The notes beneath the pieces were generated by a model. The model saw only the letters and a program-made list of their open reading frames with translations, did no database searches and was not told where the DNA came from. The position numbers and the translations under genes were made by a program. A stretch of 45,432 nt of DNA, taken from the IMG/VR virus record IMGVR_UViG_3300042261_000976, positions 68,627 to 114,058 of that record, one strand, 5' to 3'. Shown piece by piece: positions 104 to 45,432 of this stretch (positions are counted from its first letter, which is position 1; each line of letters starts with the position of its first letter). The stretch is from a virus.

Positions 104-3100
104 ATGAAAGTATTTAATATAAATGATAATTATTTCAAATATCAAAAATGTTTGTCTGGAATTACATATCAATATGTTAATGAATTAGATGACATATACG
201 CCAAAAATCTTATGGTTGGCACTAATTATTGTTTATATTGTATGTATAACGAGTTTGACATCATAAATAACTTTATGGTGAACTTATATCAAGTGGACGT
301 TTGTAGCACTTTAAATTTGGATTTAACTAAAAGATATTTTGATATAGACGGTGTTTCTCTAAGAACAGGACACAGAGTAATTCTTGTTGGTCAAACAGAT
401 AAAACACAGAACGATATTTATAATGTTGATTCTAGAGGATACCTTATATTATCAGACGAATTGGCTGACACTGGAAAAACTTGGAGATATAAAGCCTATG
501 TTAAATTAGGAGGAAATAAAAGTAAACAATTTCACTTAAAAAATTCAGGTAATAGATTTCCATTGAAGGGCGAAAAAAAGGAATTTTTAGAGGGTCATGG
601 TTATATTATAAAGAGCATATTTAATTACAATTTATTTTACGATGGACCTGTAAATCCAAAATTGATTTTTACTGATTATGAACTGGCTAGAATATCAGTT
701 AATAAAAACTACGAATTATACGATGGTTTCTATTTACCACTATTTATCACTGGTGATACTATTGATATTAAATATCATAACAGTGATTATATAATAAAAG
801 TAGATAATAATAATTCTAAATACATTTATACTGGGGTTACTTTAAGAAATACTGTTCTAAACACTGGAAGTACGGATATGTGGGGAAATTACGGTTATGA
901 AACATTCATAAAAACTAATTCCACTATATGTTCAAACGCTAATGTTTACGATTATGTAAAATTCGAGATATCTGGCAATACAAGCTTATATCTAAAAACT
1001 TTTATAAAAAGAATAGATGATCCTTATATAATCATATCAGATTATATATCTGATAATATCTTAAATGATTATTATTCGCCTAATATATCTGGTGCTAGTT
1101 ATTATAACACAACAATCGATGATTTAACTTATCCAACTTCAGGATTATGGCTAACACAAACATATGATACTTTCTTACCATATCAAGGAGGGGAATGGGT
1201 ACTACTTGAGTCTGGCGCAACTTGGTATTTGACAGGACAGGTTATTTCATATACTGGTAATACTGGTGATATTCTTATAAATATAACATATTCCAGTGTT
1301 CCTATCGGAACTAATTTTCATTGGGTTGTATCTTTAATAAGTGAACCTACTTATTATAGTTTTACTAATTTGATGTATTCTGATATTATGGATGTTGAAA
1401 ATACAATTTTAGAATCATATTATTCTAAATATTTCGATATTGATGGGGCTGGAAAATTATACCCAGCAGAAAATCTTGATAATTTATATTTTGATTATGA
1501 TGGATTAACATTCTATTTTAATACTACAGGACAATCTTTTACTACAACAAATGATTATATAAAATACAATTTATATAATCATCTCAATAAAATAAATCCA
1601 TATTTATTTGATACCGGATATACTTTTTTGATTGATAAACAATTAAATGCGATTACTTTTACTTATGAATATTTCGATGAAAGACCAAACCCTTATATTT
1701 ATCCTAATACTATAGGTGATAGCAAAGGAACGCTTATAAAGATAATACCTTATATTTCAAGTTATGTGAATTATTTTAAAAATCACACATATGTTGCTTT
1801 GAGTGATAATACAGGAGAATATAAATCTCTTATAGTAGATCTTGTTCCAAATGAATATTTTGTCGTAGAAACATATAAATCCAATACAGGATTAACTCTT
1901 AATTATATAAAAACAATATACAATTTAAAAGAAATATCAGATATTCTTTATGATGTTTATATAAACGAAGAAAACTCATATTACAGAGTGAGAGATGACG
2001 ATATGAGAAGAAATATATGTAATGGTTACGCTTCATTTATAAGCGAGGATTTAGGAATAATAGATAATACGACCGCTTTTTTAATGCAAGATCCACAACA
2101 TAAATTCGTTCTTAAAATATACGATCCCGAGAACTCCTATAATGGTGGTGTCGTAAGATCTCCTTATGTTATAACTAGACTTGATATAACTATTCCTACA
2201 GGTGGTACTTCAGCCATATTAAAGGGTGAAGTTATGAATGATGGGGGATCAAATATAACAGAGAGAGGAATTTGTTATTCTCCAGACTCTATTAACTTTA
2301 CATGTGTTTCAGCAACGACTTTAGGATTAGGACCTTATACATGCAATATTTATCCTCTAACTCCATTATATACCTATTACTATAAAGCTTATGCTAAAAA
2401 TATTCAAGGAATTGGGTATGGCGAATTATATACTTTTACTACTTCCGATCCAAATTATACAGCTCCAACAATAACTACAGACTATGTAGTTCCATATTCT
2501 CATAAATTAACACCATATGCTGATATTGTAGATATTGGATGGCTTCCTATACTAGAGAGAGGATTTATATATCAAACAGGAATAACTACACCCACTTTGA
2601 TAGATGATTTAGTTATTGTATATCTTCCAGAAAATGGTCAAACTGGTAGTTTTTATACTGATTTGACTGGGCTTACACATTCTACAATGTATTCTATAAA
2701 TAGTTACGCTATAAATATTTGCGGCACAACTTATGGGGATACTTATCATTTAGAAACATTATATCCTTCTCCTCCTGTTATAAATACAGTAGGATATACT
2801 AATGTTACATACAATAGCATGGATGTTATATGCAATTTAATAAGTAATGACGGAGAACTAACAGATCCAATTCACGGAGTAAACCAGATGGGGGTTGTTT
2901 ATTCGAATGATCCTGTTAATTTACCAACAACAGGAAATACTGTAAGACCTTATACTCCTATATCATTCGGACAATTTATAGTAAATTTAACTGGTTTAAC
3001 TTATAGTCAAAATTATTATATTAGAGCATACGCTATGAATACTTTATATTCCGGAAACACAACCGTTTATGGTACTATGATTTTTCCACCTCCTGCAACA

Positions 3101-5698: not shown

Positions 5699-5713
5699 AA
5701 AATATATAAATAA

Positions 5714-17704: not shown

Positions 17705-19531
17705 ATGGCAAGTTACGATCGATATAGAGGAAATCAAAATCAAGCTGGTACAAATACCACTAATTTTGGTTTGTTCAATAGAATATTAAGAGGACTTTCT
17801 ACCATGTTTGGTGGATTGGAATATAATGATATGCGTATTAGAAATTCATATGCTATTGGAGTACATGAAGAAACAACAGATGTTCTTTATCAACCAAATA
17901 GTTCTAATATGTATGATTTATTTACTAAGAAAACTATAGCAAGATTCTTAGACAAAAAATCAATCGCTTATCTAGATAGAACATATTTAGATAAAAGAAA
18001 AATCCTAAGACAATATTCTATAAAAGATGAAATTAAAGATTTCATAACTCAAATTGCCGATGAATGTATAATTTATGATGATAACAATAGATTTTGTTTT
18101 GTTAAAGATCTTCCAGACACATACGAACAAACTATAAGACAAAAATATCAAGAAACTTTTACTAAACTTATAAATACTTTTAATTTTAATGAGGGTCAAA
18201 CAGCGTGGAATTATCTTAAAAATCTTTTAATTGATGGTTATATTTCTTATGAAGTCGTCTATGATGATAAACAAAAAAATATTATAGATCTTGCCCCGAT
18301 TGATCCAATTACTTTAATTGTTGCTACTGATCCAAACACAAATACGATGATTTGGATTCAACATCCAGATAATCCGGCATTAAGAAGAATTTTATTGGAT
18401 TCACAAATTATTTATATTTCATATTCAAACAATAATGAATATGGAGAAACTTCTTATGTTGAAAATCTTATTCGTCCTTTCAATCAATTGAAAATGATTG
18501 AACAGGCTAGATTACTTTACAATATTAATCAAGCCTCTATTTATAAGAAATTTACAATACCTGTTGGAGGATTGACTCGTCAACAAGCAGAACAACAAAT
18601 AACAGAACTCATAGCTGAGTATCATGATGATGTTCAGTGGGATGAAAGAATGGGTACTGTAGCAATTAATGGGAGTACAAATATTCCTTTTAGTAAAGAT
18701 ATTTGGTTTCCTGAAGGCAATGCAGGTACTCCAAACGTAGAAATTTTACAACCAACACAAGTTAATTTAAATGAAGATATAGTTCTTCAATGGTTCTTTA
18801 AGATATTAAAAAGAGCTAGTAAATTACCATTTGAAAGATTTAATGAAGAAAATGGTGGTGGAGCCTATGCTTACGATTCAAACGCTCAAGTTACTAGGGA
18901 TGAAGTTAAATTTAAAAATTTCATCAATAGAATAAGAACTATATTTAAGGAAATTCTTCTTAAACCTTTGAAGATTCAAATGATTTTAGAATTTCCAGAA
19001 TTAAAAGACGATGTAGATTTTAATAACTCTATTAAACTTGATTTTATTTCTGATACATTATTTGAAGAATGGCGTCACCTAAAGAACTTAAATGAAAGAG
19101 CATCTATAGCCCAAACATTGAGTTCATCACTCCAAGATGCTGCTGGTAAACCTTATCTTAGCATAGAATGGATAGTTCGTCATATTATGAAGTTCACTGA
19201 TGCTGATATTGAAGAAAATAATAAATATAAAGCAATAGAACGTAAGATGATGGGTGGTATGGAAGGAGCCGAAGGCGGCGGTGAATTCGGAGGCGGCGGA
19301 GGCGGCTTCGGTGGTGGCGGTATGTCATTCGGAGGTGGCGGTGGAGCCCAATTCGGTGGCGGTGGAGCCCAATTCGGTGGCGGTGGAGCCCAATTCGGTG
19401 GCGGTGAATTCGGTGGAGCACAAGGCGGTGGAGCCCAATTTGGTGGGGCACAAGGAGCACAAGGCGGTGGAGCCCAATTTGGTGGAGCACAAGGCGGTGG
19501 TGGCGGACAATCACAAGCACCAACATTCTAA
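17705..19531 (+). CDS. Portal protein (T4 gp20-like) with unusual C-terminal Gly-rich repeat tail
   Basis: By-eye alignment to T4 gp20: VTRDEVKFKNFINRIRTIFKEILLKPLKIQMIL vs [33 protein letters not shown], plus a block matching around YRITRAPDRR.../TGNMEDIRWF. Gene order portal, protease, MCP. The last ~90 aa are GG(E/A)QFGGGG repeats. Confidence 0.8.
   Translation: MASYDRYRGNQNQAGTNTTNFGLFNRILRGLSTMFGGLEYNDMRIRNSYAIGVHEETTDVLYQPNSSNMYDLFTKKTIARFLDKKSIAYLDRTYLDKRKILRQYSIKDEIKDFITQIADECIIYDDNNRFCFVKDLPDTYEQTIRQKYQETFTKLINTFNFNEGQTAWNYLKNLLIDGYISYEVVYDDKQKNIIDLAPIDPITLIVATDPNTNTMIWIQHPDNPALRRILLDSQIIYISYSNNNEYGETSYVENLIRPFNQLKMIEQARLLYNINQASIYKKFTIPVGGLTRQQAEQQITELIAEYHDDVQWDERMGTVAINGSTNIPFSKDIWFPEGNAGTPNVEILQPTQVNLNEDIVLQWFFKILKRASKLPFERFNEENGGGAYAYDSNAQVTRDEVKFKNFINRIRTIFKEILLKPLKIQMILEFPELKDDVDFNNSIKLDFISDTLFEEWRHLKNLNERASIAQTLSSSLQDAAGKPYLSIEWIVRHIMKFTDADIEENNKYKAIERKMMGGMEGAEGGGEFGGGGGGFGGGGMSFGGGGGAQFGGGGAQFGGGGAQFGGGEFGGAQGGGAQFGGAQGAQGGGAQFGGAQGGGGGQSQAPTF
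19254..19500 (+). repeat. Tandem imperfect ~24-bp repeats (GGTGGAGCCCAATTCGGTGGCGGT) encoding a Gly/Ala/Gln/Phe-rich portal tail
   Basis: Directly visible repeat of GGAGCCCAATTCGGTGGCGGT units. Locally GC-rich. Generates three spurious overlapping ORFs in other frames. Confidence 0.7.
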
Positions 19532-19542
19532 ATATAAAAAAA

Positions 19543-19568
19543 CCTCTGATTTATCAGAGGTTTTTTTA
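19543..19568 (+). terminator. Rho-independent terminator after the portal gene
   Basis: CCTCTGAT-TT-ATCAGAGG hairpin followed by TTTTTTT, 12 nt after the portal stop. Confidence 0.75.
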
Positions 19569-19638: not shown

Positions 19639-22113
19639 ATGTATTATAAAAATGTTTTAATCATTGAAAATTCAACAAATGGCTTAAAAAAACTAAACGA
19701 ATCCATAGCTCCTTCCGGTAAAAAGCAATATATACTGGGCGGTATTTTCACGGAATTTAACGTTAAAAATAGGAATGATAGGATTTATCAAGCGGATAGA
19801 TTTTTGCCACATTTGGATGAATTGTTAGAAAGAAAAAAGACTCTGGGTGTTATATATGGTGAATTTGATCACCCGGATGTTTTTGACACTAGTTTGTCTA
19901 GGGTATCTCATACGGTTGAAAAGTGTTTCTTTGTCAGAGAAAAAAATAGAGTAGATGGTGAAATTAGATTACTAAATACTCATTGGGGTAGAGAAGCACA
20001 AGCATTAATCGATGATGGATGCCCAATTTTTGTTTCTTCACGTGCCGCCGGTGTAACTGAGTCGAATGGTGAAGTAACTATTAAAAAACTATTTACATAC
20101 GACGCAGTTGCTGACCCTGGGTTTAGTTCTGCGAAAATGGAACTTCGCACCTTAAATGAATCGCTAGGATTTAACGAGAGTGCCAACTTTAGGATATATG
20201 ATATATCCGACGAGTCAAAAATAAACGAGTTGTTCAATATGGATAAAAATGAATTTGTAACCAAAGAACAGATGGAAAAGTACTCAAATTATTTGACCGA
20301 GCAAATCACAAAAACAAAAAGTGAAATTAATGAAGCCATCCAAAAGGGAGACTTCGATCCAGCAAAGTTATCTGATTTATATGACAAGTATGATTCCTTC
20401 CAGGAAGGCTTCAAGAAAATAGCTTCCTATCTTGACTACTTAGCAGAAACAATGCAAGTCTTAGTCCAAGAAAACAAAAAAATCAAGAAAACAAACGAAA
20501 AATTAGAAGGCAAATTAGATAGAACAAAAGCTAAAACAGAAAAAATTATTGAACATAATGACTATTTAGCTGGAGAACTTGAAAAAGCCATCGGGTACAC
20601 AGAAAAAGCCATCGGGTACACAGAATATGTAGCTGAAGCAGTTGACAAATCTATTGATTATTCAAATTACATAGCTGAGACATTAGATAAATCTATTGAT
20701 TTCTCTGAATATATCGCAGAAAACGTTGATAATACAATTAAATATTCTGAATATATCGCTGAAAATCTTGATAAATCTATTGACTATTCTGAGTATGTTG
20801 CAGAAAATCTAGAAAAGAATATCGCATATGCTGAATATATTGCAGAGCATGTTGATAATAACATCAAATATGCTGAATATATCGCTGAACATGTCGACAA
20901 TAATATTAAATATGCTGAATATATAGCAGAACACGTCGATAACAGTATCAAATATACAGAATATGTTGGAGAACAATTAGATAACAGTATTAAGTATTCA
21001 GAATACATTGCTGAAAATCTAACTGATTCTATTGCCTATGGTAATTACTTAGCAGAAGCAATTGACAAGAATGTTGAGTACGGTAAGTATCTCGCAGAAA
21101 AATTAAATAGTGGTTCATTTGGAAGATTAAACGAACAAGTACAACCACCAGCACAAAAAATGGGTAACTTCAAGACCGATTCAGTAGCCAAATACTATGA
21201 TGAAAATGAGAACGATATGACTCAAGCACAACCAGTACAGGGAGCTCAAGCACAAGGTGCACAACCAAGAATGGCTCAACCAGTACAAGGTCAAGCTCAA
21301 CCAAGAGCCCAAGCCCAAGCTCAACAAGTACAGGGTATGGATTTAGAAGGTGAAGAAAGTGAGGATATGGATGTTCAAGGAGTAAATGCTGAAGAAATTC
21401 AAGACATTGATGATAAGGCAGAACTCACTCCAGGTCAAGTTGTCAAGATTGATGACGACAAAACAGGTGAAATTTTAGCAGTTAATGCTGATAATGGAAT
21501 AGCTGTTGTTAAATTATCTGACACAGGTGAAGTCCAAGAGATTCAAGAATCCAGATTATCTATCATAGGTGATAAGATTTATGAATCAGAAAACACATTA
21601 AAGAAACTAATATTAAAGCAAATAAATGAGTCCAAAAAACGTGAGGCATCGAAAGATAACGAACCTCATTTCTTACTTTTCTTAACTGAAAAGAAAAAGG
21701 CTGCTTATTACAACCTTTCACAACAGGATAAAGAAAAAGTAATCGTTGCAATGAACGAAAGCAAAGGTTATACAACAGAAAGTGAAGTTCTCGCTATCAT
21801 GGCTAAAGCATTAACTACAGCCACAAGAAGTTTTAATGAGACGTTGATCGACAATATCCCAGGCGATCTAAGACCAATATGGGAAAGTTTACGTCCCGAG
21901 GTTCAAGGTAGTATTATAAATAGTGCGCAATTCTATACTAATTTGACAGAGGATAAAATGGAAAGTTTCTGGAATTCTAGAGACCTTCATAAATATGCAA
22001 AGAAAAACATGGGTAAAGTGACCTTGTTAACAGAAAGTAATAACAAATTTGATAACACTAAACTCTCTGATGATCTTGTAGATGCATATTTAAAAAGAAT
22101 TAATCAAAGATAA
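19639..22113 (+). CDS. Prohead protease (T4 gp21-like, N-terminal ~200 aa) fused to a long scaffold/core-like C-terminal extension
   Basis: GGIFTEFNVKNRNDRIYQ vs T4 gp21 EGIFLQAEVVNRNKRLYP; GEFDHP vs GELNHP (catalytic His); FVSSRAAGV vs GVSSRGLG (catalytic Ser). The C-terminal 600 aa hold coiled-coil tandem repeats (EYIAENVDNSIKYSEY, ~10 copies), a Q/A-rich tract and an acidic region, i.e. a gp22/scaffold-like character. Confidence 0.75.
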   Translation: MYYKNVLIIENSTNGLKKLNESIAPSGKKQYILGGIFTEFNVKNRNDRIYQADRFLPHLDELLERKKTLGVIYGEFDHPDVFDTSLSRVSHTVEKCFFVREKNRVDGEIRLLNTHWGREAQALIDDGCPIFVSSRAAGVTESNGEVTIKKLFTYDAVADPGFSSAKMELRTLNESLGFNESANFRIYDISDESKINELFNMDKNEFVTKEQMEKYSNYLTEQITKTKSEINEAIQKGDFDPAKLSDLYDKYDSFQEGFKKIASYLDYLAETMQVLVQENKKIKKTNEKLEGKLDRTKAKTEKIIEHNDYLAGELEKAIGYTEKAIGYTEYVAEAVDKSIDYSNYIAETLDKSIDFSEYIAENVDNTIKYSEYIAENLDKSIDYSEYVAENLEKNIAYAEYIAEHVDNNIKYAEYIAEHVDNNIKYAEYIAEHVDNSIKYTEYVGEQLDNSIKYSEYIAENLTDSIAYGNYLAEAIDKNVEYGKYLAEKLNSGSFGRLNEQVQPPAQKMGNFKTDSVAKYYDENENDMTQAQPVQGAQAQGAQPRMAQPVQGQAQPRAQAQAQQVQGMDLEGEESEDMDVQGVNAEEIQDIDDKAELTPGQVVKIDDDKTGEILAVNADNGIAVVKLSDTGEVQEIQESRLSIIGDKIYESENTLKKLILKQINESKKREASKDNEPHFLLFLTEKKKAAYYNLSQQDKEKVIVAMNESKGYTTESEVLAIMAKALTTATRSFNETLIDNIPGDLRPIWESLRPEVQGSIINSAQFYTNLTEDKMESFWNSRDLHKYAKKNMGKVTLLTESNNKFDNTKLSDDLVDAYLKRINQR
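20560..21070 (+). repeat. In-frame tandem repeats inside the protease-scaffold gene (2 x 21 bp, then ~10 x 48 bp)
   Basis: GAAAAAGCCATCGGGTACACA x2, followed by repeated units of the form GAATATATCGCAGAAAACGTTGATAATACAATTAAATATTCT encoding (S/A)EYIAE(N/H)(V/L)D(N/K)(S/N)I(K/D)Y. Confidence 0.75.
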
Positions 22114-22190: not shown

Positions 22191-23975
22191 ATGAATTTTA
22201 TAGTTGACAGTGCGAAAGCAATAAAGAAATGGCAACCTATTCTCGACGCTCTTAGGGTAACTGATGATGACAAGAGAGCTTGGATGTCAGAGTATGCTGA
22301 AATGCATCAAATGAATGAAAATGTTGGCTATGCCACATTAAATCAAAAAGGTATGGGTCAAGTATTTGCTCCAGTAGTAGGTACAGTTCCAGGTGCAACA
22401 TGGCAAGATGGTCATGGCGCAATTGGTAGCGGTGACGTTGCTCAAAACCTCCTTCCAGTAGCTATGAAGATCGCTGCTCAAACAATCGGTTTGGATTTAG
22501 TAGCTGTTAAACCAACAGCATCACCAAGAATCGAGTTGTTATTCGTTGACTTCAAATATGACAACGCTTATGCAAACGATCCTAATCGTGAAGATATCGA
22601 TCCAAGACAAAGACCACTTGTTTTCAAATTAGCCACAAGCACAAGTGCTGGTGATTTAGCTTTAAAACAAGCTCTTCAATTACAACTCAGTCTTTTGAGT
22701 ATTCAAGAAAGAGTTGGTGGATTATCAAAAAGAACATGGGTTCACTTAGGAGCTGGTTGTACAGTTGCTCAATTAACTAATTTACCAGACAATTTACCAG
22801 CCGCTGGTTACTACAATTTTATGGAATTCTTAGGATTTTCAAGAATTGATGGACACCCAATGTATAGAATTTACAGACAAGCCGGTTTCTCAGTTGGTTC
22901 AATGACACCACAAGACGGTTCTGCATGGGATTCTACATTAAACACTTTCCCACAAACAGGAGCTATCACAGACGTTCTTATCGCAAGTGGTATTACCACA
23001 GTATCAGGAACATCAACATCTCAAGTCACAGGAAACACAGCAGCTGCTGGTGCAACTGTTGAATTAGTATCCTTACTCGAAGATCATATTCCAGGATTCT
23101 CCGCAGGTTGGACATCCAATATGGAAAATGGTTGGGAAGGCCCAATGACAAGATACCAAGATGAAAAAACCTATCCAGGTGTTATCGGTCCTGACGTATT
23201 TACAAAATCCGTCCAAGTTGGTGACATCGAAATCTCCTCAACATTGAAGAGAACCCAAATTGAAGACATCAAGGCTTCAACTGGTATGGATATTGTTCAG
23301 AAATTGGAAGGTGTTCTTATTAATGAATTAACTCAGGTTATTTCTAAGGAAATCGTAGGTAAAATCAGAAAATTAGCTCTTGCTAATAGAGATTCCTACA
23401 CAGCACCAAAAGCAACTGACGGTGTTACATGTAAATTCGACTTAAACGTTGACTCTTACATCGCATCACTTTCAAGTGGTACTTATGGTGGAGCAATGGG
23501 TGAAACAACTCACTCAATCCAAAGAAAGCTTATTGCTAAGATCAATAACGCTTCTAACTTCATCGCAACTGATGGTAGAATTGGACCAGCTCAATATTTG
23601 GTTACAAACGGTAACTTAGCTTCCGTTATCCAAGATATCGCTGGTTATACGATCAATCCAGTTAACGCTGGTAAATTAAACACCAACGGTCAACTTTATC
23701 CAATGGGTAATGTTGGACAGATTGCAATCTATGTAGATCCTTACATGAGATGGGATGATAACTTCATCTATATGGGTAGAAAGAATAGCGTTGACCAACC
23801 AGGTCTTCTCTTTATTCCTTACTTAATGGCTCAATCAATTAGCTTAATCAGTGAAGCTACCTGGGCACCCAGGATGTTAATTAGATCAAGATATGCAGTA
23901 GCTGATATCGGATTCTTCCCGGAAAAGCAATTCATGGCAATTAAAGTTACTGATAGTAACGGTGTTCTTATCTAA
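22191..23975 (+). CDS. Major capsid protein (T4 gp23-like, HK97-fold lineage)
   Basis: AKAIKKWQPILDAL vs T4 gp23 AELLNKWKPLLEG; AMKIAAQTIGLDLVAVKPTASPRIELLFV vs VRRAIPNLIAFDICGVQPMNSPTGQVFAL. Likely maturation cleavage at QMNE|NVGY, analogous to T4 FLTE|AEIGG. Followed by the strongest terminator in the window. Confidence 0.85.
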   Translation: MNFIVDSAKAIKKWQPILDALRVTDDDKRAWMSEYAEMHQMNENVGYATLNQKGMGQVFAPVVGTVPGATWQDGHGAIGSGDVAQNLLPVAMKIAAQTIGLDLVAVKPTASPRIELLFVDFKYDNAYANDPNREDIDPRQRPLVFKLATSTSAGDLALKQALQLQLSLLSIQERVGGLSKRTWVHLGAGCTVAQLTNLPDNLPAAGYYNFMEFLGFSRIDGHPMYRIYRQAGFSVGSMTPQDGSAWDSTLNTFPQTGAITDVLIASGITTVSGTSTSQVTGNTAAAGATVELVSLLEDHIPGFSAGWTSNMENGWEGPMTRYQDEKTYPGVIGPDVFTKSVQVGDIEISSTLKRTQIEDIKASTGMDIVQKLEGVLINELTQVISKEIVGKIRKLALANRDSYTAPKATDGVTCKFDLNVDSYIASLSSGTYGGAMGETTHSIQRKLIAKINNASNFIATDGRIGPAQYLVTNGNLASVIQDIAGYTINPVNAGKLNTNGQLYPMGNVGQIAIYVDPYMRWDDNFIYMGRKNSVDQPGLLFIPYLMAQSISLISEATWAPRMLIRSRYAVADIGFFPEKQFMAIKVTDSNGVLI

Positions 23976-29084: not shown

Positions 29085-29189
29085 AACTCTATATATTAAA
29101 ATAGAATTTCTTAAAATTTTTGTTTAATTCAAAAAAAAGTTATAATTTTGTACTGATAAAAAATTATAAACTTAAAAAGAAAAAAAACT

Positions 29190-31518: not shown

Positions 31519-31986
31519 TTAGTACTTAAAATCATTTAAATTGTCGTGCCAAGTAAATCCATTATCAAACCCTTCCTTTTTGCCAAATCCTGGTAAAGGT
31601 GTTGATACGTGCCACCCATTTGGTTCTTCCACGTATGGTTTAACATAACCAAAGTGACTATTTCCTGTAGAACCTATTGGTGTGATTTCTTTTTTGTTCA
31701 AATAACTATCATAATTAGTATAATTATAATTCCATGAATTTGTATCTATTGGAGTATAAGTTGGAGTTTCATATTTCATAGTATAATCTGGAACACTATT
31801 ATAATCATAATTATTATAATTGAAGTAATTATTCACCTGATTATTATAATAGTCGTTATTTAGATTATTATTATTGTAATCATAACCATAGGAATAATTG
31901 TTGTTGTTCTGATCGTAATAACCATAACCATTGTTATAGTTATATTGATCCATTGGGTTCATTTGATAATTGTTGTCGAAGAACAT
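31519..31986 (-). CDS. N/Y-rich (prion-like composition) protein with ordinary C-terminal domain
   Basis: First ~90 aa are almost only N, Y, D, Q, G (NNYQMNPMDQYNYNNGYGYYDQNNNNYSYGYDYNNNN...). C-terminal 60 aa are of normal composition. Best Shine-Dalgarno in the window (AAAGGAGCTTATATG). Confidence 0.4.
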   Translation of the reverse strand: MFFDNNYQMNPMDQYNYNNGYGYYDQNNNNYSYGYDYNNNNLNNDYYNNQVNNYFNYNNYDYNSVPDYTMKYETPTYTPIDTNSWNYNYTNYDSYLNKKEITPIGSTGNSHFGYVKPYVEEPNGWHVSTPLPGFGKKEGFDNGFTWHDNLNDFKY

Positions 31987-32179: not shown

Positions 32180-33058
32180 TTAAACCAATCCCTTTATTTT
32201 TAATGCTCTTAATAGTCTTGTTAATCCTATTCCTCCACCATATCTTTTGAACATCTGTAGAGATAAATAATCTTCCAATTCTTCTTCAACTCTTTCTTGT
32301 GAAAATTCATTAAAAAGAAGTTTAGCATACATGCCATCACTGATTGTATGGAAGCTACTACGCATTTGTTCAACATCAGATTCTCTCTCAGCACTACCAA
32401 ATGTTTCTATACCACAAATTATAAAATCACATTTATTAAATAATTTTTCACCAGTCATTTTATTGTTTCCTTCCTGTTTCATATTCCAAAAAGGACTTGT
32501 TCTTTCCGGGAAATTAGTTATAGCAACTACATCGCCGTATTCTTCCCACATTTTAGTTTCATGTTCTGCTTCAAGAATTTCAACACCATATCTCTTGCAC
32601 AATTCGTCATATTCTATAAAAGGTATATCATCTACCGATTTCACAAACCCCATATGAACTGACAATTCACTTAAAGTTTTTAACAAATCTTTATATTCTC
32701 CTTTATGTTCAAATTCAAACATAGGGAATATTTTATCATGTCTTCCTTCGATTGGATTTGGTTCATCTCTATAACTTGTTGTTAAACAATATATGCCTTC
32801 AGATTCTTCTGGGTATGTCATTAATAACATTTCAAGATTCATCTGATTAGTTTGACTCAACGGCCAATTTTTACCATCAAATGTAAATGATCTGAGAGTT
32901 TTTGGATCTTCACAAGCAGCCATTATTGATCTAATCGGTTGTGGATAAACCTCTTTGTAATTTTTTTGCATAAAAAAATCCCTTAGTTTAACAATCATAG
33001 AATTAAACTCTTCGGGACTAATAACTTGTTGATTAAAAATTTTCTTTTTCATAAGCAT
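32180..33058 (-). CDS. Class II aminoacyl-tRNA synthetase catalytic-core paralog lacking an anticodon-binding domain (EpmA/GenX- or AsnA-like amino-acid ligase)
   Basis: Motif 1-like FFMQKNYKEVYPQPI; motif 2 TTSYRDEPNPIEGRHDKIFPMFEFE (fRnE...rH..EF.m.E.E); motif 3 GGGIGLTRLLRAL (GxGxGxxRL). 292 aa, only the catalytic core. Confidence 0.6.
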   Translation of the reverse strand: MLMKKKIFNQQVISPEEFNSMIVKLRDFFMQKNYKEVYPQPIRSIMAACEDPKTLRSFTFDGKNWPLSQTNQMNLEMLLMTYPEESEGIYCLTTSYRDEPNPIEGRHDKIFPMFEFEHKGEYKDLLKTLSELSVHMGFVKSVDDIPFIEYDELCKRYGVEILEAEHETKMWEEYGDVVAITNFPERTSPFWNMKQEGNNKMTGEKLFNKCDFIICGIETFGSAERESDVEQMRSSFHTISDGMYAKLLFNEFSQERVEEELEDYLSLQMFKRYGGGIGLTRLLRALKIKGLV

Positions 33059-33114
33059 TTTTTTTTAAGGGACAAAATGTTCCTCAAATTGGCATAAAAA
33101 AATAGTCAAAATGA

Positions 33115-33891
33115 CTATTTTTTATTTATTTTAGTTTTTTCTATTATTATAAAATTCTTCGATTTGTTATATCTTAAAATACTAGAAAAACTAAAGTTTT
33201 TTTCTTTTGAAAATTCTTTTAATTCATCTCTGCTTTTTATTTCAAATATATTATCATTGTTTTTTATTTTATAACAAACTGAATTTCCGTTATTTAATCC
33301 AAATCTTTCTATTTTCCATTTTTCTTTTAATTGTTCGGAATGAGTTTTATCATAAAAAGGATTTTTTTCTCCAATTTTAGCTTTTCTTATTTTTTCTTTT
33401 GATTCTTCTGTATGTTCAAAAATATGTCCTTCGTGTCCAATTAAAGATTTACTAATATTTTTTCTTCTCTCTTCTTTTTTCCTTTCTGACATATTTCCAA
33501 AAGCTATTATTACAGATTTTGATATTTTATCTTTTGTTGAATTATTATGCTTAAATCCACTTTGTCCTTCCCCACCATCGCTAAAATTAACAAGTGGTCC
33601 ATTTTCCATTCTTCCTATTTTTAATATTAATTCTTTTTCTTTCATAAAAGCTTTGTTTTCCGATAAATTATCATATACCTTTTTAACAATAGGAGTAAGA
33701 CCTAATTCTTTAATTTTACTAATTTTATTTAATTTATAAGAATTATTAATTGAATGATTCAAATGATAGAACATTCTATTGCCAATTCCTTTGCCTACAT
33801 AAAAAGGTTCAAAATCAAACTCTAAATTTTCATAAATGAATTTTCCTGGTTTTCTAGGATCTAAATAGATATAAACATAATATTCTTCCAT
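33115..33891 (-). mobile_element. GIY-YIG homing endonuclease (Seg / I-TevI-like, free-standing)
   Basis: N-terminal YVYIYLD...EPFYVGKGIGNRMFYHL (GIY...YIG...R...H). C-terminal NUMOD3-like helices (SKSLIGHEGHIFEHTEESKEKIRKAKIGEKNPFYDKTHSEQ). Located directly after the truncated DNA polymerase gene. Confidence 0.65.
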
Positions 33892-33905
33892 ATATACCGT
33901 AAAAA

Positions 33906-34000
33906 TTGGCGAACCCTAACTGCGGTGCGTCCACTGACTTTTTCAAGTTCTACACTAGCCCAAACGGTCGGAGCGCTCTTTTAGGTTTTACTCGCCAAAG
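33906..34000 (-). other. GC-rich ~95-nt structured element between the polymerase fragment and the homing-endonuclease gene
   Basis: Local GC ~55% against ~30% background. Bounded by a 7-bp inverted repeat TTGGCGA...TCGCCAA. Contains the palindromes GAGCGCTC and AGCGCT. No coding frame. Confidence 0.35.
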
Positions 34001-34032
34001 TTTATATATTTAATTCAAAAAATCAATTTTTT

Positions 34033-35547
34033 CTAATCCGAATATTCTAGTTCCATTATTAAATCTTCTTCTGCTGCCTTCAATTCTCTCTTATGTTCTT
34101 CCAATTTATCATGATCTTTCATCATGAAATCTTTATATTTCTTTCTATCTCCATATACATCAGTCATTACTTGATTAACTATACCAGTTTCATTCTTGAA
34201 CACAGTATCGTTTAACAATTTAATATCTGTAGGTTCTAGTTCAACTCTATGTCCATTAAATACTGCAAATTCTTTATTAGGTGATAAAACTCCTTTATAA
34301 GAATCTGCTGATATATTGAACATTCTCATACAAGTAGGGTACAAACTTGCGAAGTCATAACAAGCTGTCCACATCGCCATTCCCTTGATTGTATCTTTTA
34401 CCCAACCACCTTTAACTGCTTTTTCTAAAGATTCTATTACTGTATCTGGTAAACTTTTTTCTAATTTACAAAGAATAACATTTTTTTCTTCTTTAAGTTT
34501 TCTTCTTAAGATGCCTTCAGTAACAGGTAAAGTAGAATAAGCATCTAATATCTTTATTCTAGATAATGTAGCGATGCCATAAAGAATATCAACCCATTTA
34601 GTAGTATCATGTATTTTTTGAACTAGAATAGAGTCAACAGCATTATAAAAAATGAATTTCTTATAATCTGTAGATGCTAATGTTTTAAGTGTTCCTTCGT
34701 AATTGATTTTCTTTACACCAAGAATACCATCAGAAACAAAGTCTAAACTGCTTGCCTCTTTTACTTTAATGATACTATTCCATTTTTCATATAATTCCTG
34801 ATAGTCAACTATAATTCTATGTCCTGGTAATTCGCAGAAAGATTCTCTTTTTTTACCACTTTTATTATCTCTTTTAAATGGAGGTCTAAGAACTCTCGTT
34901 GGTGATGCTGCGGTAGGATCAACTCCTATTTTTCTAGCTCTATTAACAAGAAATACCCAGTCGTATTCTGTAAAGTTCCAACCTGTTATGATTGGCATTT
35001 TTGGTACAAATTTCTCAAAGAAATTTAGTAACATTTCATATTCACTCTTATATCTTACGAATTTGAAATCATAGTCAGCGTTGAATTTAACAAAATAATT
35101 ATTAATGTCTTCTCTAATGGATTTTTCTTGCTCAGCACTCAAAGCGTCAAGCCCCATTACCATTACTTTATTCTTATTGACTATAGATATTGATTGTATT
35201 GCGCTTTCAGCTAATTGAGGTTGCGGCTTTTTATCCAGAATTTCGTTTTCAATATCAACAAAGAAAATTTCTGGCTCTACATATTTCATTACAATTTCTT
35301 GTTCTTCTTTCGGAAGACTATCAATAAAATCGTATACAGAATATCTATCTGGAAATCTTGTATAGACTTTCTTTACTGCTTTACCATCCCATGTAACATA
35401 TTGACCGTCTTTATCTCTATCATCGTCAGAGCAAACAACGTATTTGGTTGGATTTGGCCATGTATAGTACTTATGTTTTATCCATCCACCTTCACCGATG
35501 TAAGACAACATGAGTTTTTGATTCTTATATTCGTAATCTACAACCAA
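34033..35547 (-). CDS. Family-B DNA polymerase, N-terminal fragment only (T4 gp43 '43A'-like: 3'-5' exonuclease domain through polymerase motif A)
   Basis: Exo I IFFVDIENE (T4 CDIEVTG); Exo II MPIITGWNFTEYDWVFLVNRA (T4 PAIFTGWNIEGFDVPYIMNRV); Exo III FIFYNAVDSILVQKI (T4 YISYNIIDVESVQAI); motif A YDFASLYPTCMRMFNIS (T4 FDLTSLYPSIIRQVNIS). Ends ~70 aa after motif A. Motifs B and C are absent. The annotated start is a TTG at 35547; the first ATG is at 35511. Confidence 0.75.
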   Translation of the reverse strand: MVVDYEYKNQKLMLSYIGEGGWIKHKYYTWPNPTKYVVCSDDDRDKDGQYVTWDGKAVKKVYTRFPDRYSVYDFIDSLPKEEQEIVMKYVEPEIFFVDIENEILDKKPQPQLAESAIQSISIVNKNKVMVMGLDALSAEQEKSIREDINNYFVKFNADYDFKFVRYKSEYEMLLNFFEKFVPKMPIITGWNFTEYDWVFLVNRARKIGVDPTAASPTRVLRPPFKRDNKSGKKRESFCELPGHRIIVDYQELYEKWNSIIKVKEASSLDFVSDGILGVKKINYEGTLKTLASTDYKKFIFYNAVDSILVQKIHDTTKWVDILYGIATLSRIKILDAYSTLPVTEGILRRKLKEEKNVILCKLEKSLPDTVIESLEKAVKGGWVKDTIKGMAMWTACYDFASLYPTCMRMFNISADSYKGVLSPNKEFAVFNGHRVELEPTDIKLLNDTVFKNETGIVNQVMTDVYGDRKKYKDFMMKDHDKLEEHKRELKAAEEDLIMELEYSD

Positions 35548-44341: not shown

Positions 44342-45432
44342 TATTTATTTTATTATCCACCCGACACCACTCAAAGGAATAATATTAATTGATGTATTAT
44401 GATATTGAATGTCGAATGTCGAATATCCATTGATAAATTCTTGGTTGTATATATTAAAATTTACAATACTATATCCGATATTATTTATAGTATATCCATT
44501 TTGATTACTCGATGATATAGGCGACATATTTAAAATAATATTTGAATTTGACGTCCCTGAAGTTAATATGATGTCGTCGGTCGAAGTTAGATTAGTCGTT
44601 CCACTATATACAATTCTAAATGATGGAGGACCAGATGTCCCGGAACCATCTTTACCGGAAGAACCAGATGTTCCTGAATTTCCAGTAATTCCACTAGTAC
44701 CACTAGATCCAAAAAAACTACCATCTGCCCCGCTGGAACCACTAGACCCACTAATTCCATGAGTCCCAGCAATACCAGATGTACCACTGGATCCATCAGA
44801 CCCTGATGTTCCACTAGTGCCCGATGTTCCACTTAAACCACTAGTTCCACTAGTCCCTGATATTCCACTGGTTCCACTAGTTCCGCTAGTTCCTGATGTT
44901 CCTGATATTCCGCTGGTTCCACTAGAACCACTAAACCCCGATGTTCCACTCGTTCCTGATGATCCGCTAGTTCCTGATGATCCGCTAGTTCCTGATGATC
45001 CGCTAGTTCCTGATGATCCGCTAGTTCCTGATGATCCGCTAGTTCCTGATGATCCGCTAGTTCCTGATGTTCCACTAACTCCATGTGTCCCCGATATTCC
45101 ACTAGTCCCACTAGTTCCTGATGTTCCACTAGTCCCACTAGTTCCTGATGTTCCACTAGTCCCACTAGTTCCTGATGTTCCACTAGTGCCACTAGTTCCT
45201 GATGTTCCACTAGTGCCACTAGATCCACTAGTTCCTGATGTTCCACTAGTGCCACTAGATCCACTAGACCCAGATGTCCCACTAATACCATGTGTCCCCG
45301 ATATTCCACTAGTTCCTGATGTTCCACTAGTGCCACTAGTTCCTGATGTTCCACTAGTGCCACTAGATCCACTAGTTCCTGATGTTCCACTAGTGCCACT
45401 AGATCCACTAGACCCAGATGTCCCACTAATAC
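44342..45432 (-). CDS. Collagen-like (Gly-X-Y) repeat tail-fibre protein, 3' portion; the gene continues past the window end
   Basis: Minus-strand frame reads ...GSSGTSGITGNSGTSGSSGKDGSGTSGPPSF... with Gly at every third residue for more than 250 aa and no stop codons. It runs into the non-collagen C-terminal domain that the track lists as a separate 60-aa ORF (44345..44527). The track ORFs 44568..44762, 44587..44832 and 44833..45426 are the other frames of the same repeat. Confidence 0.6.

Follow-up and report, generated by a model that had tools for sequence, protein, structure and literature searches.

The DNA analyzed here (hereafter the window) is a stretch of 45,432 nucleotides (nt) from the IMG/VR virus record IMGVR_UViG_3300042261_000976, and it belongs with the Mahaphage-type huge phages. 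Between a gene for the N-terminal fragment of a family-B DNA polymerase and a gene for a homing endonuclease lies a GC-rich stretch, which comparison with related phages identifies as a real, strongly conserved folded RNA element shared by a small group of huge phages. The element occupies positions 33906-33998 on the minus strand, a length of 93 nt, and the genes around it all lie on that same strand. It begins after a spacer of 34 nt that follows the polymerase-fragment stop codon (34033-34035), and its end is separated by 14 nt from the endonuclease ATG (33891). The gene beyond the endonuclease encodes a protein that has only the catalytic core of the AsnRS/AspRS family (hereafter AsnRS-core). 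The element is a structured RNA that belongs to a generally familiar type, phage leaders and small RNAs, but to no described family, and it comes from a poorly explored virus group. The function to which we give most weight, tentatively, is that of a 5'-leader module or attenuator, in which the closing stem of the fold and the U-tract behind it would act as a leaky or conditional stop.

Conservation and fold of the element

The initial annotation, made from the letters of the window, described a sharp GC island enclosed by an inverted repeat. The island is real, although the G+C content of 33906-34000 is 50.5%, against a window mean of 31.0%, and not about 55% as had been given. This value stands at the 99.1st percentile among all 95-nt windows of the stretch. 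The segment is also, as had been stated, the only strongly GC-rich non-coding one in the window, because all other 95-nt windows with a G+C content of at least 50.5% are coding. The 7-nt inverted repeat (TTGGCGA at 33906-33912 and TCGCCAA at 33992-33998, plus strand) and the internal palindromes, with GAGCGCTC near 33971-33978, are present as described; on the minus strand the pairing of the repeat reaches 9 base pairs (bp) by the addition of a G.U and a U.G pair. Single-sequence fold energies do not discriminate. On the gene strand the z-score is +0.30 for the window copy, which is not significant, and -2.05 for the copy in the related contig L001, and on the opposite strand the corresponding values are -1.08 and -2.58. 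Since the fold energy of the window copy is unremarkable, the case for the element rests on comparison with relatives.

The relatives fetched were the LR756501/LR756503 locus and many contigs encoding close homologues of the polymerase or of AsnRS-core. LR756501/LR756503, which have 78% DNA identity to the window polymerase fragment, were the only matches in a blastn search of 50,697 phage records. Seven distinct variants of the element, 66-93 nt in length, occur in related Mahaphage-type huge-phage contigs, with the window included. Besides the 93-nt copy of the window, there is a 78-nt variant shared by L061, L037 and L038, a 75-nt variant in L078, an 85-nt variant in L001, an 86-nt variant shared by L059, L053 and L066, an 88-nt variant in L073 and a 66-nt variant in L076. 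A comparison of this junction in phages with and without the endonuclease, which the initial annotation had proposed, finds the element conserved in six relatives that are free of the endonuclease.

The basal 32 nt of the element, which comprise the stems P1 and P2 and the bulge between them, are identical at 27-31 of 32 positions (84-97%) between phages, and the apical part is 54-85% identical. The adjacent polymerase has 81-90% protein identity, and its four-fold sites are 36-56% identical, which is near saturation. The apical and polymerase ranges leave out the L001/L059 pair, in which the polymerases have 98% protein identity and 67% identity at four-fold sites. A basal segment that stays nearly identical while neighboring four-fold sites are nearly saturated indicates that purifying selection on this non-coding segment is strong.

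The fold is closed by a 9-bp stem (P1). An AAAA bulge separates this stem from P2, of 5 bp, and an internal loop separates P2 from P3, of 3 bp, beyond which a three-way junction carries two hairpin arms. P1, P2 and P3 were obtained with RNAalifold from an unguided MAFFT alignment, and the arms, P3a-P4 and P5, from a manual, structure-guided alignment of the six full-length variants. In the window, all on the minus strand, P1 pairs UUGGCGAGU (33990-33998) with GUUCGCCAA (33906-33914), as given by RNAalifold and the pair table, and its 9 bp include four G-C or C-G pairs together with G8.U and U9.G. The sequence of P1 is almost invariant; the inner G.U is swapped to U.G in L076, and a 3-nt deletion in L078 shortens the stem, which still abuts the U-tract. 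The 5' bulge between P1 and P2 (33986-33989) is unpaired in the consensus, and is AAAA in six of the seven variants and AAAU in L076. P2 is formed by CCUAA (33981-33985) and UUAGG (33915-33919), with an innermost pair that varies among A-U, G.U and A.C. In P3, GCG (33974-33976) pairs with CGC (33922-33924), the consensus being RCG/CGY; the G-C pair is replaced by A-U in L073, which is compensatory, and by A.C in L076.

The P3a-P4 arm (33953-33973) is a hairpin in which a C.A mismatch separates helices of 3 and 4 bp, capped by a loop that varies. A compensatory change from C-G to U-A is found in P3a. In P4 the compensatory changes are from A-U to G-C in L078, for which the A.C of the window is an intermediate, and from C-G to A-U. 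Arm P5 (33925-33934), placed by the manual alignment, is the 3-bp hairpin GUG-GACG-CAC; its strands are GUG/CAC in the window, L061 and L078, and GUA/UAC in L001, L059 and L073, a compensatory exchange of G-C and A-U. The window copy has an extra hairpin of its own, ACUU-GAAA-AAGU (33937-33948), which carries a GNRA tetraloop and lies within a 15-nt insertion relative to L061. At the other extreme of length, the apex of L076 has shrunk to a single hairpin.

In the model-fitted alignment, 96.1% of cells are paired compared with 89.6% in shuffles. Eight pairs are changed on both sides compared with 2.4 in shuffles, a value reached by none of 500, and at most two are so changed when the partners are slid. 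The manual alignment of six variants has 96.3% of cells paired and compensatory double changes at 6 of 27 pairs; its 11 double-changed cells compare with 4.2 +/- 1.6 in shuffles (0/1000 reach 11). Pairing extends to 96% of cells on the gene strand and to 85% on the opposite strand, and in six of six variants the fold model has the greater stability on the gene strand. The invariant G.U pairs, which would become C.A on the opposite strand, point to the gene direction. This strand bias favors an RNA that would be transcribed in the same direction as the genes.

A short protein-coding gene on the opposite strand, with a TTG start and 35 codons in the window, is a very improbable explanation of the conservation. 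Its frame is open in six of the seven variants, and the length differences in one variant group (93, 78, 75 and 66 nt) are multiples of three. However, stop codons are scarce in GC-rich DNA by composition, so that a frame open in most variants is expected. There is no ATG start, the TTG start is lost in L078, a stop interrupts the frame in L059, and the C-terminal half is out of frame in L001 and L073. The peptide shows no conservation in its middle part, and coding does not account for the compensatory pair changes. This small open reading frame (ORF) was rejected since neither its frame nor its start nor its integrity is conserved.

The element belongs to no described RNA family. Rfam 15 gave no match in the whole window at gathering thresholds, no match in 33850-34060 at E<=10, with intron, T-box, riboswitch and ribozyme models included, and nothing at the element in five relatives at E<=5. 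ARAGORN found no tRNA or tmRNA in the window, and none in four variants when thresholds were lowered, introns allowed and mitochondrial models used. Several known kinds of RNA were rejected on these and other grounds. A group I or group II intron has no match to the intron covariance models, and there are no flanking exons of one gene. For a tRNA, the cloverleaf is not detected by ARAGORN; the terminal stem is 7-9 bp, as in an acceptor, and is followed by UUUUU, with no encoded CCA, although processing followed by CCA addition would be conceivable. A T-box leader is contradicted by the absence of an Rfam match, by a length of 66-93 nt and by the lack of a conserved unpaired UGGN in the alignment, and for the known riboswitch classes no aptamer family of Rfam 15 matched. 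Inspection of the variants by eye found no conserved K-turn in the internal loop, no T-box-like sequence, no Asn codon or anticodon in the P4 loop and no leader peptide.

A covariance model built from the seven variants scores the window copy at 92 bits and gives one weak extra match, in L062, at 30.7 bits. The L062 copy (2631-2711, plus strand) may be a decayed or decaying element, because its P1 differs in sequence (a 9-bp closing stem formed by AUGGUAAGU/AUUUACCAU), P2 is lost and its G+C content is 25%. It precedes a RimK-like gene, in a phage that has no AsnRS-core gene. At 82 further AsnRS-core loci, of phages and giant-virus bins, the model detected no copy, and no second copy was found elsewhere in the window or in the examined loci. 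Exact and gapped DNA patterns recovered two viral contigs, and a metagenome scan gave the same two; the metagenome matches L056-L058 and L060 were rejected by the covariance model as unrelated. Pattern scans of viral, metagenome and 185,579-genome collections revealed no further lineage, and the 185,579 genomes contained no bacterial or archaeal copies. These comparisons show a real element family whose range is a single small huge-phage clade. Within this clade the element type does not track the polymerase tree. The L078 polymerase is closest to those of L001 and L059 (89-90% amino acid (aa) identity), yet the L078 element is of the window/L061 type, which suggests recombination within the intergenic region.

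Promoter-like motif, U-tract and neighboring genes

The motif AATATATA (34003-34010, minus strand; extended context ttaAATATATAaac) is located 4 nt upstream of the first P1 base, and the spacing of exactly 4 nt is kept in all seven variants. Its orientation is read from the context because the 8-mer is nearly palindromic. Intergenic DNA makes up 8% of the window and holds 16 of the 25 window occurrences of the 8-mer, and 11 of these 16 sit 3-24 nt before a start codon on the same strand. The motif is likely a phage promoter element. Such a spacing would place the RNA start in, or right at, the first bases of P1. A scan with sigma-70 and terminator consensus sequences is uninformative in such AT-rich DNA. 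In the form (T)TAATATATA, the motif is seen for example at 5701, 8915, 11063, 13735, 19607, 22161, 24057 and 25298 on the plus strand and at 29097, 37172, 40217 and 34010 on the minus strand. It precedes genes in related contigs too, and some copies are so near the start codon that the mRNAs would be almost leaderless.

A U-tract, UUUUU (33901-33905, minus strand), directly follows P1. In six of the seven variants, 4-5 consecutive U are present at the end of P1 or 1 nt past it; in L059 the tract is interrupted (UUAUUU), with three consecutive U. Overall, the distance from the 3' end of P1 to the tract does not exceed 3 nt. P1 together with this tract has the stem and U-tract of an intrinsic terminator, and the two may act as one. 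A simple terminator scan misses the combination on the gene strand because the enclosed 'loop' is 75 nt. The element also has the position of a leader, in the 5' untranslated region between a predicted promoter and a gene. No second promoter-like motif is found between the element and the AsnRS-core AUG in L001, L059, L073, L076 and L078, and none between the element and the endonuclease in the window. The AsnRS-core gene in those contigs, and the endonuclease gene in the window, must therefore be read through the element.

The AsnRS-core protein of the window (292 aa; 32180-33058, minus strand; Pfam PF00152, 2.9e-15) is without an anticodon-binding domain. A profile of the family finds AsnRS catalytic domains as its best matches in the PDB (1.4e-7), with no close solved relative. 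AsnRS-like asparagine synthetases that are tRNA-independent are known in archaea, and by this analogy the AsnRS-core protein is probably an asparagine synthetase. The viral family is large, with more than 550 IMG/VR loci, including giant-virus bins (GVMAG), and 5,829 proteins at E<=1e-5. AsnRS-core is the next gene after the element in five of the seven variants and the next conserved downstream gene in six; it is the ancestral downstream gene of the element. Directly after it in the window lies a 155-aa ORF (31519-31986, minus strand) that is extremely rich in Asn and Tyr, with runs like NNNNYSYGYDYNNNNLNNDYYNNQVNNYFNYNNYDYN and no Pfam match, and after this a RimK-like ATP-grasp ligase.

A U-rich run, a GC hairpin and an A-run (33059-33090, minus strand) form a leader that ends at the AsnRS-core AUG. 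The same shape, built from different stems, occurs at 13 loci with or without the element (the window, L001, L041, L064, L066, L073, L076, L078, L082 and L084-L087); examples of the stems are GGUGGGG/CUCCGCC, GAGACAC/GUGUCUC and GGGAC/GUCC. The U-run can pair with the A-run into a helix of ~11-17 bp, which would bury the A-rich region before the start codon, and a canonical terminator is present on neither strand. Two possible roles of this leader hairpin are translational sequestration and service as a processing site. In L001 the 3' strand of P1 can pair with the downstream hairpin as an anti-sequestor, but L076 and L078 do not conserve this pairing, and it was rejected.

The homing endonuclease (258 aa; 33115-33891, minus strand) is of the GIY-YIG type with NUMOD3 (Pfam PF22945, 6e-11; PF07460, 9e-10), and its match to TIGR01453, the 'group I intron endonuclease' type, is below cut-off at 2e-7. 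Together with its own hairpin and U-run (~33096-33118), it makes up an inserted cassette of ~800 bp, which is found behind the element in the window only and is absent from the six other element-bearing phages. The boundaries of the insertion were placed by visual comparison with L061 and L076. The match to L061 extends through TCGCCAATTTTTACG, breaks off and begins again at ATGCCAATTTGAGG, past the endonuclease ORF and its hairpin and U-run, and the segment that starts there corresponds to the spacer and hairpin of L076 and L061. The insertion point is ~9 nt past P1. As judged from these comparisons, the endonuclease is a later insertion and the element predates it.

A GIY-YIG/NUMOD3 endonuclease that is 56% identical to that of the window is encoded in L082 (831-1625, plus strand) and L083 (815-1609, plus strand), directly upstream of an 87%-identical AsnRS-core gene, with no polymerase and no element there. 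A homologue beside the gene without the element indicates that the endonuclease family tracks the gene and not the element. The simplest reading is that the family homes to the AsnRS-core neighborhood and that in the window it landed behind the RNA, where its expression would now depend on read-through. The suggestion in the initial annotation that the element is a leader RNA controlling the endonuclease thus holds in part. The element does lie in the predicted 5' leader of a transcript that now carries the endonuclease, with no promoter-like motif between the two, but it is not specific to the endonuclease, since endonuclease-free relatives carry it, normally before the AsnRS-core gene, and the related endonuclease occupies an element-free locus.

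On the other side of the element, the polymerase fragment (504 aa; 34033-35547, minus strand; Pfam PF03104 and PF00136, the latter at profile positions 25-146 of 453) covers the exonuclease domain but no more than the first third of the polymerase domain, and the C-terminal half lies outside the window. Its 120 best matches, two fragments aside, are ~480-509 aa long. Whether or not a relative carries the element, its fragment is ended by a stop codon at this same position or a few residues from it. The intergenic space that follows it is a hot spot for differing small ORFs across phages.

Proposed mechanism and alternative explanations

If the element is an attenuator, it would be made as the first ~93 nt of a transcript from the promoter-like motif, and this RNA would fold into a self-contained module closed by P1 around the three-way junction. 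The folded module and the U-tract would together constitute a leaky or conditional transcription stop. Stopped transcripts would leave a stable RNA of ~100 nt, and read-through would give expression of downstream genes, ancestrally of the AsnRS-core gene. In the window, the cassette behind P1 would be expressed by the same read-through. We infer the start of the transcript, its termination or attenuation and any modulating ligand or protein from the sequences.

This arrangement is like that of riboswitch and attenuator leaders in several respects. The element follows a promoter-like motif and precedes a biosynthetic gene, a stem joins its 5' and 3' ends, and the U-tract comes after a structure with a three-way junction and variable peripheral hairpins, one of which has an inserted GNRA hairpin. 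Strong conservation against a saturated neutral background is a further likeness. Unlike such leaders, the element has no Rfam 15 family, its P1 and P2 are conserved in sequence, no terminator/anti-terminator pair was found, no ligand is suggested, and its distribution is limited to one small huge-phage clade. In the 5'-terminal stabilizer stem-loops of the ompA and T4 gene 32 type, mRNAs are shielded from 5'-end-dependent decay by pairing of the 5' end. The element transcript would likewise be paired within a few nt of its start; in those stabilizers, however, a simple hairpin is enough, with no need for an invariant sequence, a junction or a U-tract.

Several observations weigh against the attenuator. 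A 9-bp stem that encloses 75 nt, as P1 does in the window copy, is not a canonical intrinsic terminator, in which the loop is short (3-8 nt). No conserved anti-terminator pairing was found between the element and the leader hairpin, whose stem varies while the element does not, and only P1 and the U-tract could serve as the expression platform. The conservation of P1 and P2 in sequence, and not just in pairing, fits protein recognition better than a simple structural stop. The window copy, with its insignificant fold energy, has two mismatches (U.U and A.C) in the P3a/P4 arm, where the register may be shifted. With seven variants from about three lineages, the covariation statistics are weak, and they depend in part on alignments that lean towards structure. 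The leader hairpin and the AsnRS-core gene are present without the element in L041, L064, L082 and L084, where the promoter-like motif is also found. Conversely, the L061 element is intact though the AsnRS-core gene has been deleted and half of the hairpin kept. Because promoter-like motif, hairpin and gene occur without the element, and the L061 element without the gene, these loci define the element as an optional module between the promoter and the leader hairpin of the AsnRS-core gene.

A stand-alone, trans-acting small RNA ranks second and is nearly as likely as the attenuator; we regard it as possible. Such an RNA, of ~95-100 nt, would bind a protein as a decoy, scaffold or cofactor and borrow the AsnRS-core promoter. 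Its 3' end would come from termination at the U-tract or from cleavage at the long hairpin downstream, whose ~11-17-bp helix of U-run, hairpin and A-run could be a processing site. The element is a self-contained module whose 5' and 3' ends are joined by P1, it has stayed intact in L061 without the downstream gene, and it tolerates a separation of ~800 bp from the AsnRS-core gene in the window. Invariance of P1, the bulge and P2, with loops that are free to vary, is the pattern of a protein-binding helix and not of an antisense seed. On the other hand, many transcripts must run past the element, as the downstream gene has no second promoter; there is no candidate partner protein, and no other copy is present in the window or the examined loci. 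In a bolder reading, which we consider unlikely, the element would be an aptamer that defines a new class of regulatory RNA peculiar to huge phages, senses an asparagine-supply signal and gates transcription into the AsnRS-core gene. Candidate signals would be asparagine, aspartate, tRNA(Asn) in its charged or uncharged state, or the AsnRS-core protein. Less probable again is an operator or partner RNA of the AsnRS-core protein, either a mimic of a tRNA acceptor for autoregulation or a substrate RNA. Genes for aminoacyl-tRNA synthetases (aaRS) under tRNA-like leaders are well known, as in E. coli thrS and the T-boxes, and provide a precedent for it. Such an operator would agree with the place of AsnRS-core as the next conserved downstream gene in most variants and with an acceptor-like terminal stem of 7-9 bp. 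The gene linkage, however, is weak evidence because these phages are close relatives with a conserved gene order. No tRNA-like fold is found with relaxed or mitochondrial ARAGORN models, the U-tract follows the stem in place of a CCA/discriminator context, and 0 of the 82 other loci of the gene family carry the element. The protein lacks the domain for anticodon binding, and its closest functional analogues are the tRNA-independent asparagine synthetases. The comparison with T-boxes and other leaders of aaRS and amino acid genes, including the thrS operator, is similarly divided. The element does lie upstream of a gene of the AsnRS/AspRS family, and control of an amino-acid-supply gene by an RNA sensor would suit a genome that is AT-rich and hungry for Asn; but it is far too short, has no specifier loop, no T-box sequence and no model match, and is missing from most AsnRS-core homologues.

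The endonuclease suggests two further explanations, both anticipated in the initial annotation. T4 free-standing endonucleases sit between conserved genes and cut the neighboring conserved sequence, and their expression comes from transcripts that run on past terminators and RNA structures (PMC2988022). The gene segB is an example of such an arrangement in the T4 tRNA cluster (PMC2330249). Like mobE, segB, segF and I-TevI of T4 (PMC2988022), the window endonuclease would be expressed by read-through only, as it has no promoter-like motif of its own and follows an RNA structure and U-tract by 14 nt. Unlike in these cases, the structure was not built for the endonuclease, as its conservation in six phages without the endonuclease indicates, and it does not sequester the start codon. 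The likeness to segB (PMC2330249) is that of a GIY-YIG endonuclease gene beside a structured-RNA gene that offers an invariant landing sequence; the element, however, is not a tRNA, and the related L082 endonuclease lies at an AsnRS-core gene without the RNA. A site at the DNA level, whether an endonuclease recognition or homing site, an operator or a hairpin-forming DNA, is thus conceivable, but we hold it to be improbable, and a preserved homing site is the less likely reason for the existence of the element. The targeting of conserved sequence beside the insertion by phage free-standing endonucleases, including the tRNA gene region in the case of SegB (PMC2988022; PMC2330249), speaks for it, as does the invariance of the P1 and P2 sequences. 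The recognition sequence probably overlaps TCGCCAATTTTTACG, and may overlap the 3' edge of the element, because the cassette was inserted ~9 nt past P1. Apical compensatory changes and G.U pairs, which are C.A on the other strand, nevertheless point to RNA, and covariation and conservation are seen in phages free of the endonuclease. Moreover, the spacing of the repeat arms varies over 52-79 bp, which is unsuited to a dimeric DNA binder, the element is intact in the genome that carries the endonuclease, and the 56%-identical endonuclease occupies an AsnRS-core locus without it. A remnant of a self-splicing intron, or of another known ribozyme tied to the endonuclease, is effectively refuted and has very little probability left. 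It drew on the adjoining GIY-YIG endonuclease, with its subthreshold TIGR01453 match, and on the split polymerase gene. Permissive Rfam searches (E<=10 for the element, E<=5 for five relatives) gave no match, the presence of the element shifts the polymerase endpoint by a few residues at most, the gene downstream is not a polymerase gene, and the element is older than the endonuclease insertion.

Significance and other features of the window

Mahaphage huge phages have genomes of up to 735 kb and predicted Bacteroidetes hosts (PMC7162821). They carry many genes for translation and metabolism, the regulation of which is almost unexplored. The element is a compact and strongly constrained RNA with a defined fold and a fixed position behind a recurrent promoter-like motif. 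It comes with a natural set of variants, from a minimal form of 66 nt to an expanded one of 93 nt, with a putative decayed copy and clean absences. The narrow distribution and the small number of variants, seven, limit the finding. Even so, the element is a tractable experimental entry to gene control in the Mahaphage group and a candidate for a new Rfam family. It also presents what appears to be a case of a homing endonuclease that landed directly behind a conserved RNA structure and inherited read-through expression. Were the element an aptamer for an asparagine-supply signal, it would be the first RNA sensor for the asparagine pathway, and a phage-autonomous one, in an AT-rich genome with abundant Asn codons.

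The other GC-rich segments of the window are of a different kind. The segment at 19254-19531 (plus strand) is the GC peak of the window, with up to 69.5%, and encodes the Gly-rich C-terminal tail, with repeats of the GGGGAQF type, of a 608-aa protein; a canonical terminator (~19535-19567) follows this gene. The segments at 21216-21341 and 22349-22489 are internal to ORFs. At 44345-45432 (minus strand) a long ORF with collagen-like Gly-X-Y repeats (GTSGTSGSSG...) runs off the end of the window. This ORF explains the GC-rich repetitive DNA there, for which the ORF list gives only out-of-frame artefacts (LVEHQE repeats). Five ORFs of the window that are not otherwise related carry between them six copies of a short peptide motif, DPYGEE(D/N/S)W (17450 and 24386 on the plus strand; 28205, 28604, 37590 and 38816 on the minus strand), and several L001 ORFs carry it as well. 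The motif may serve these proteins in common as a signal for docking, cleavage or targeting.

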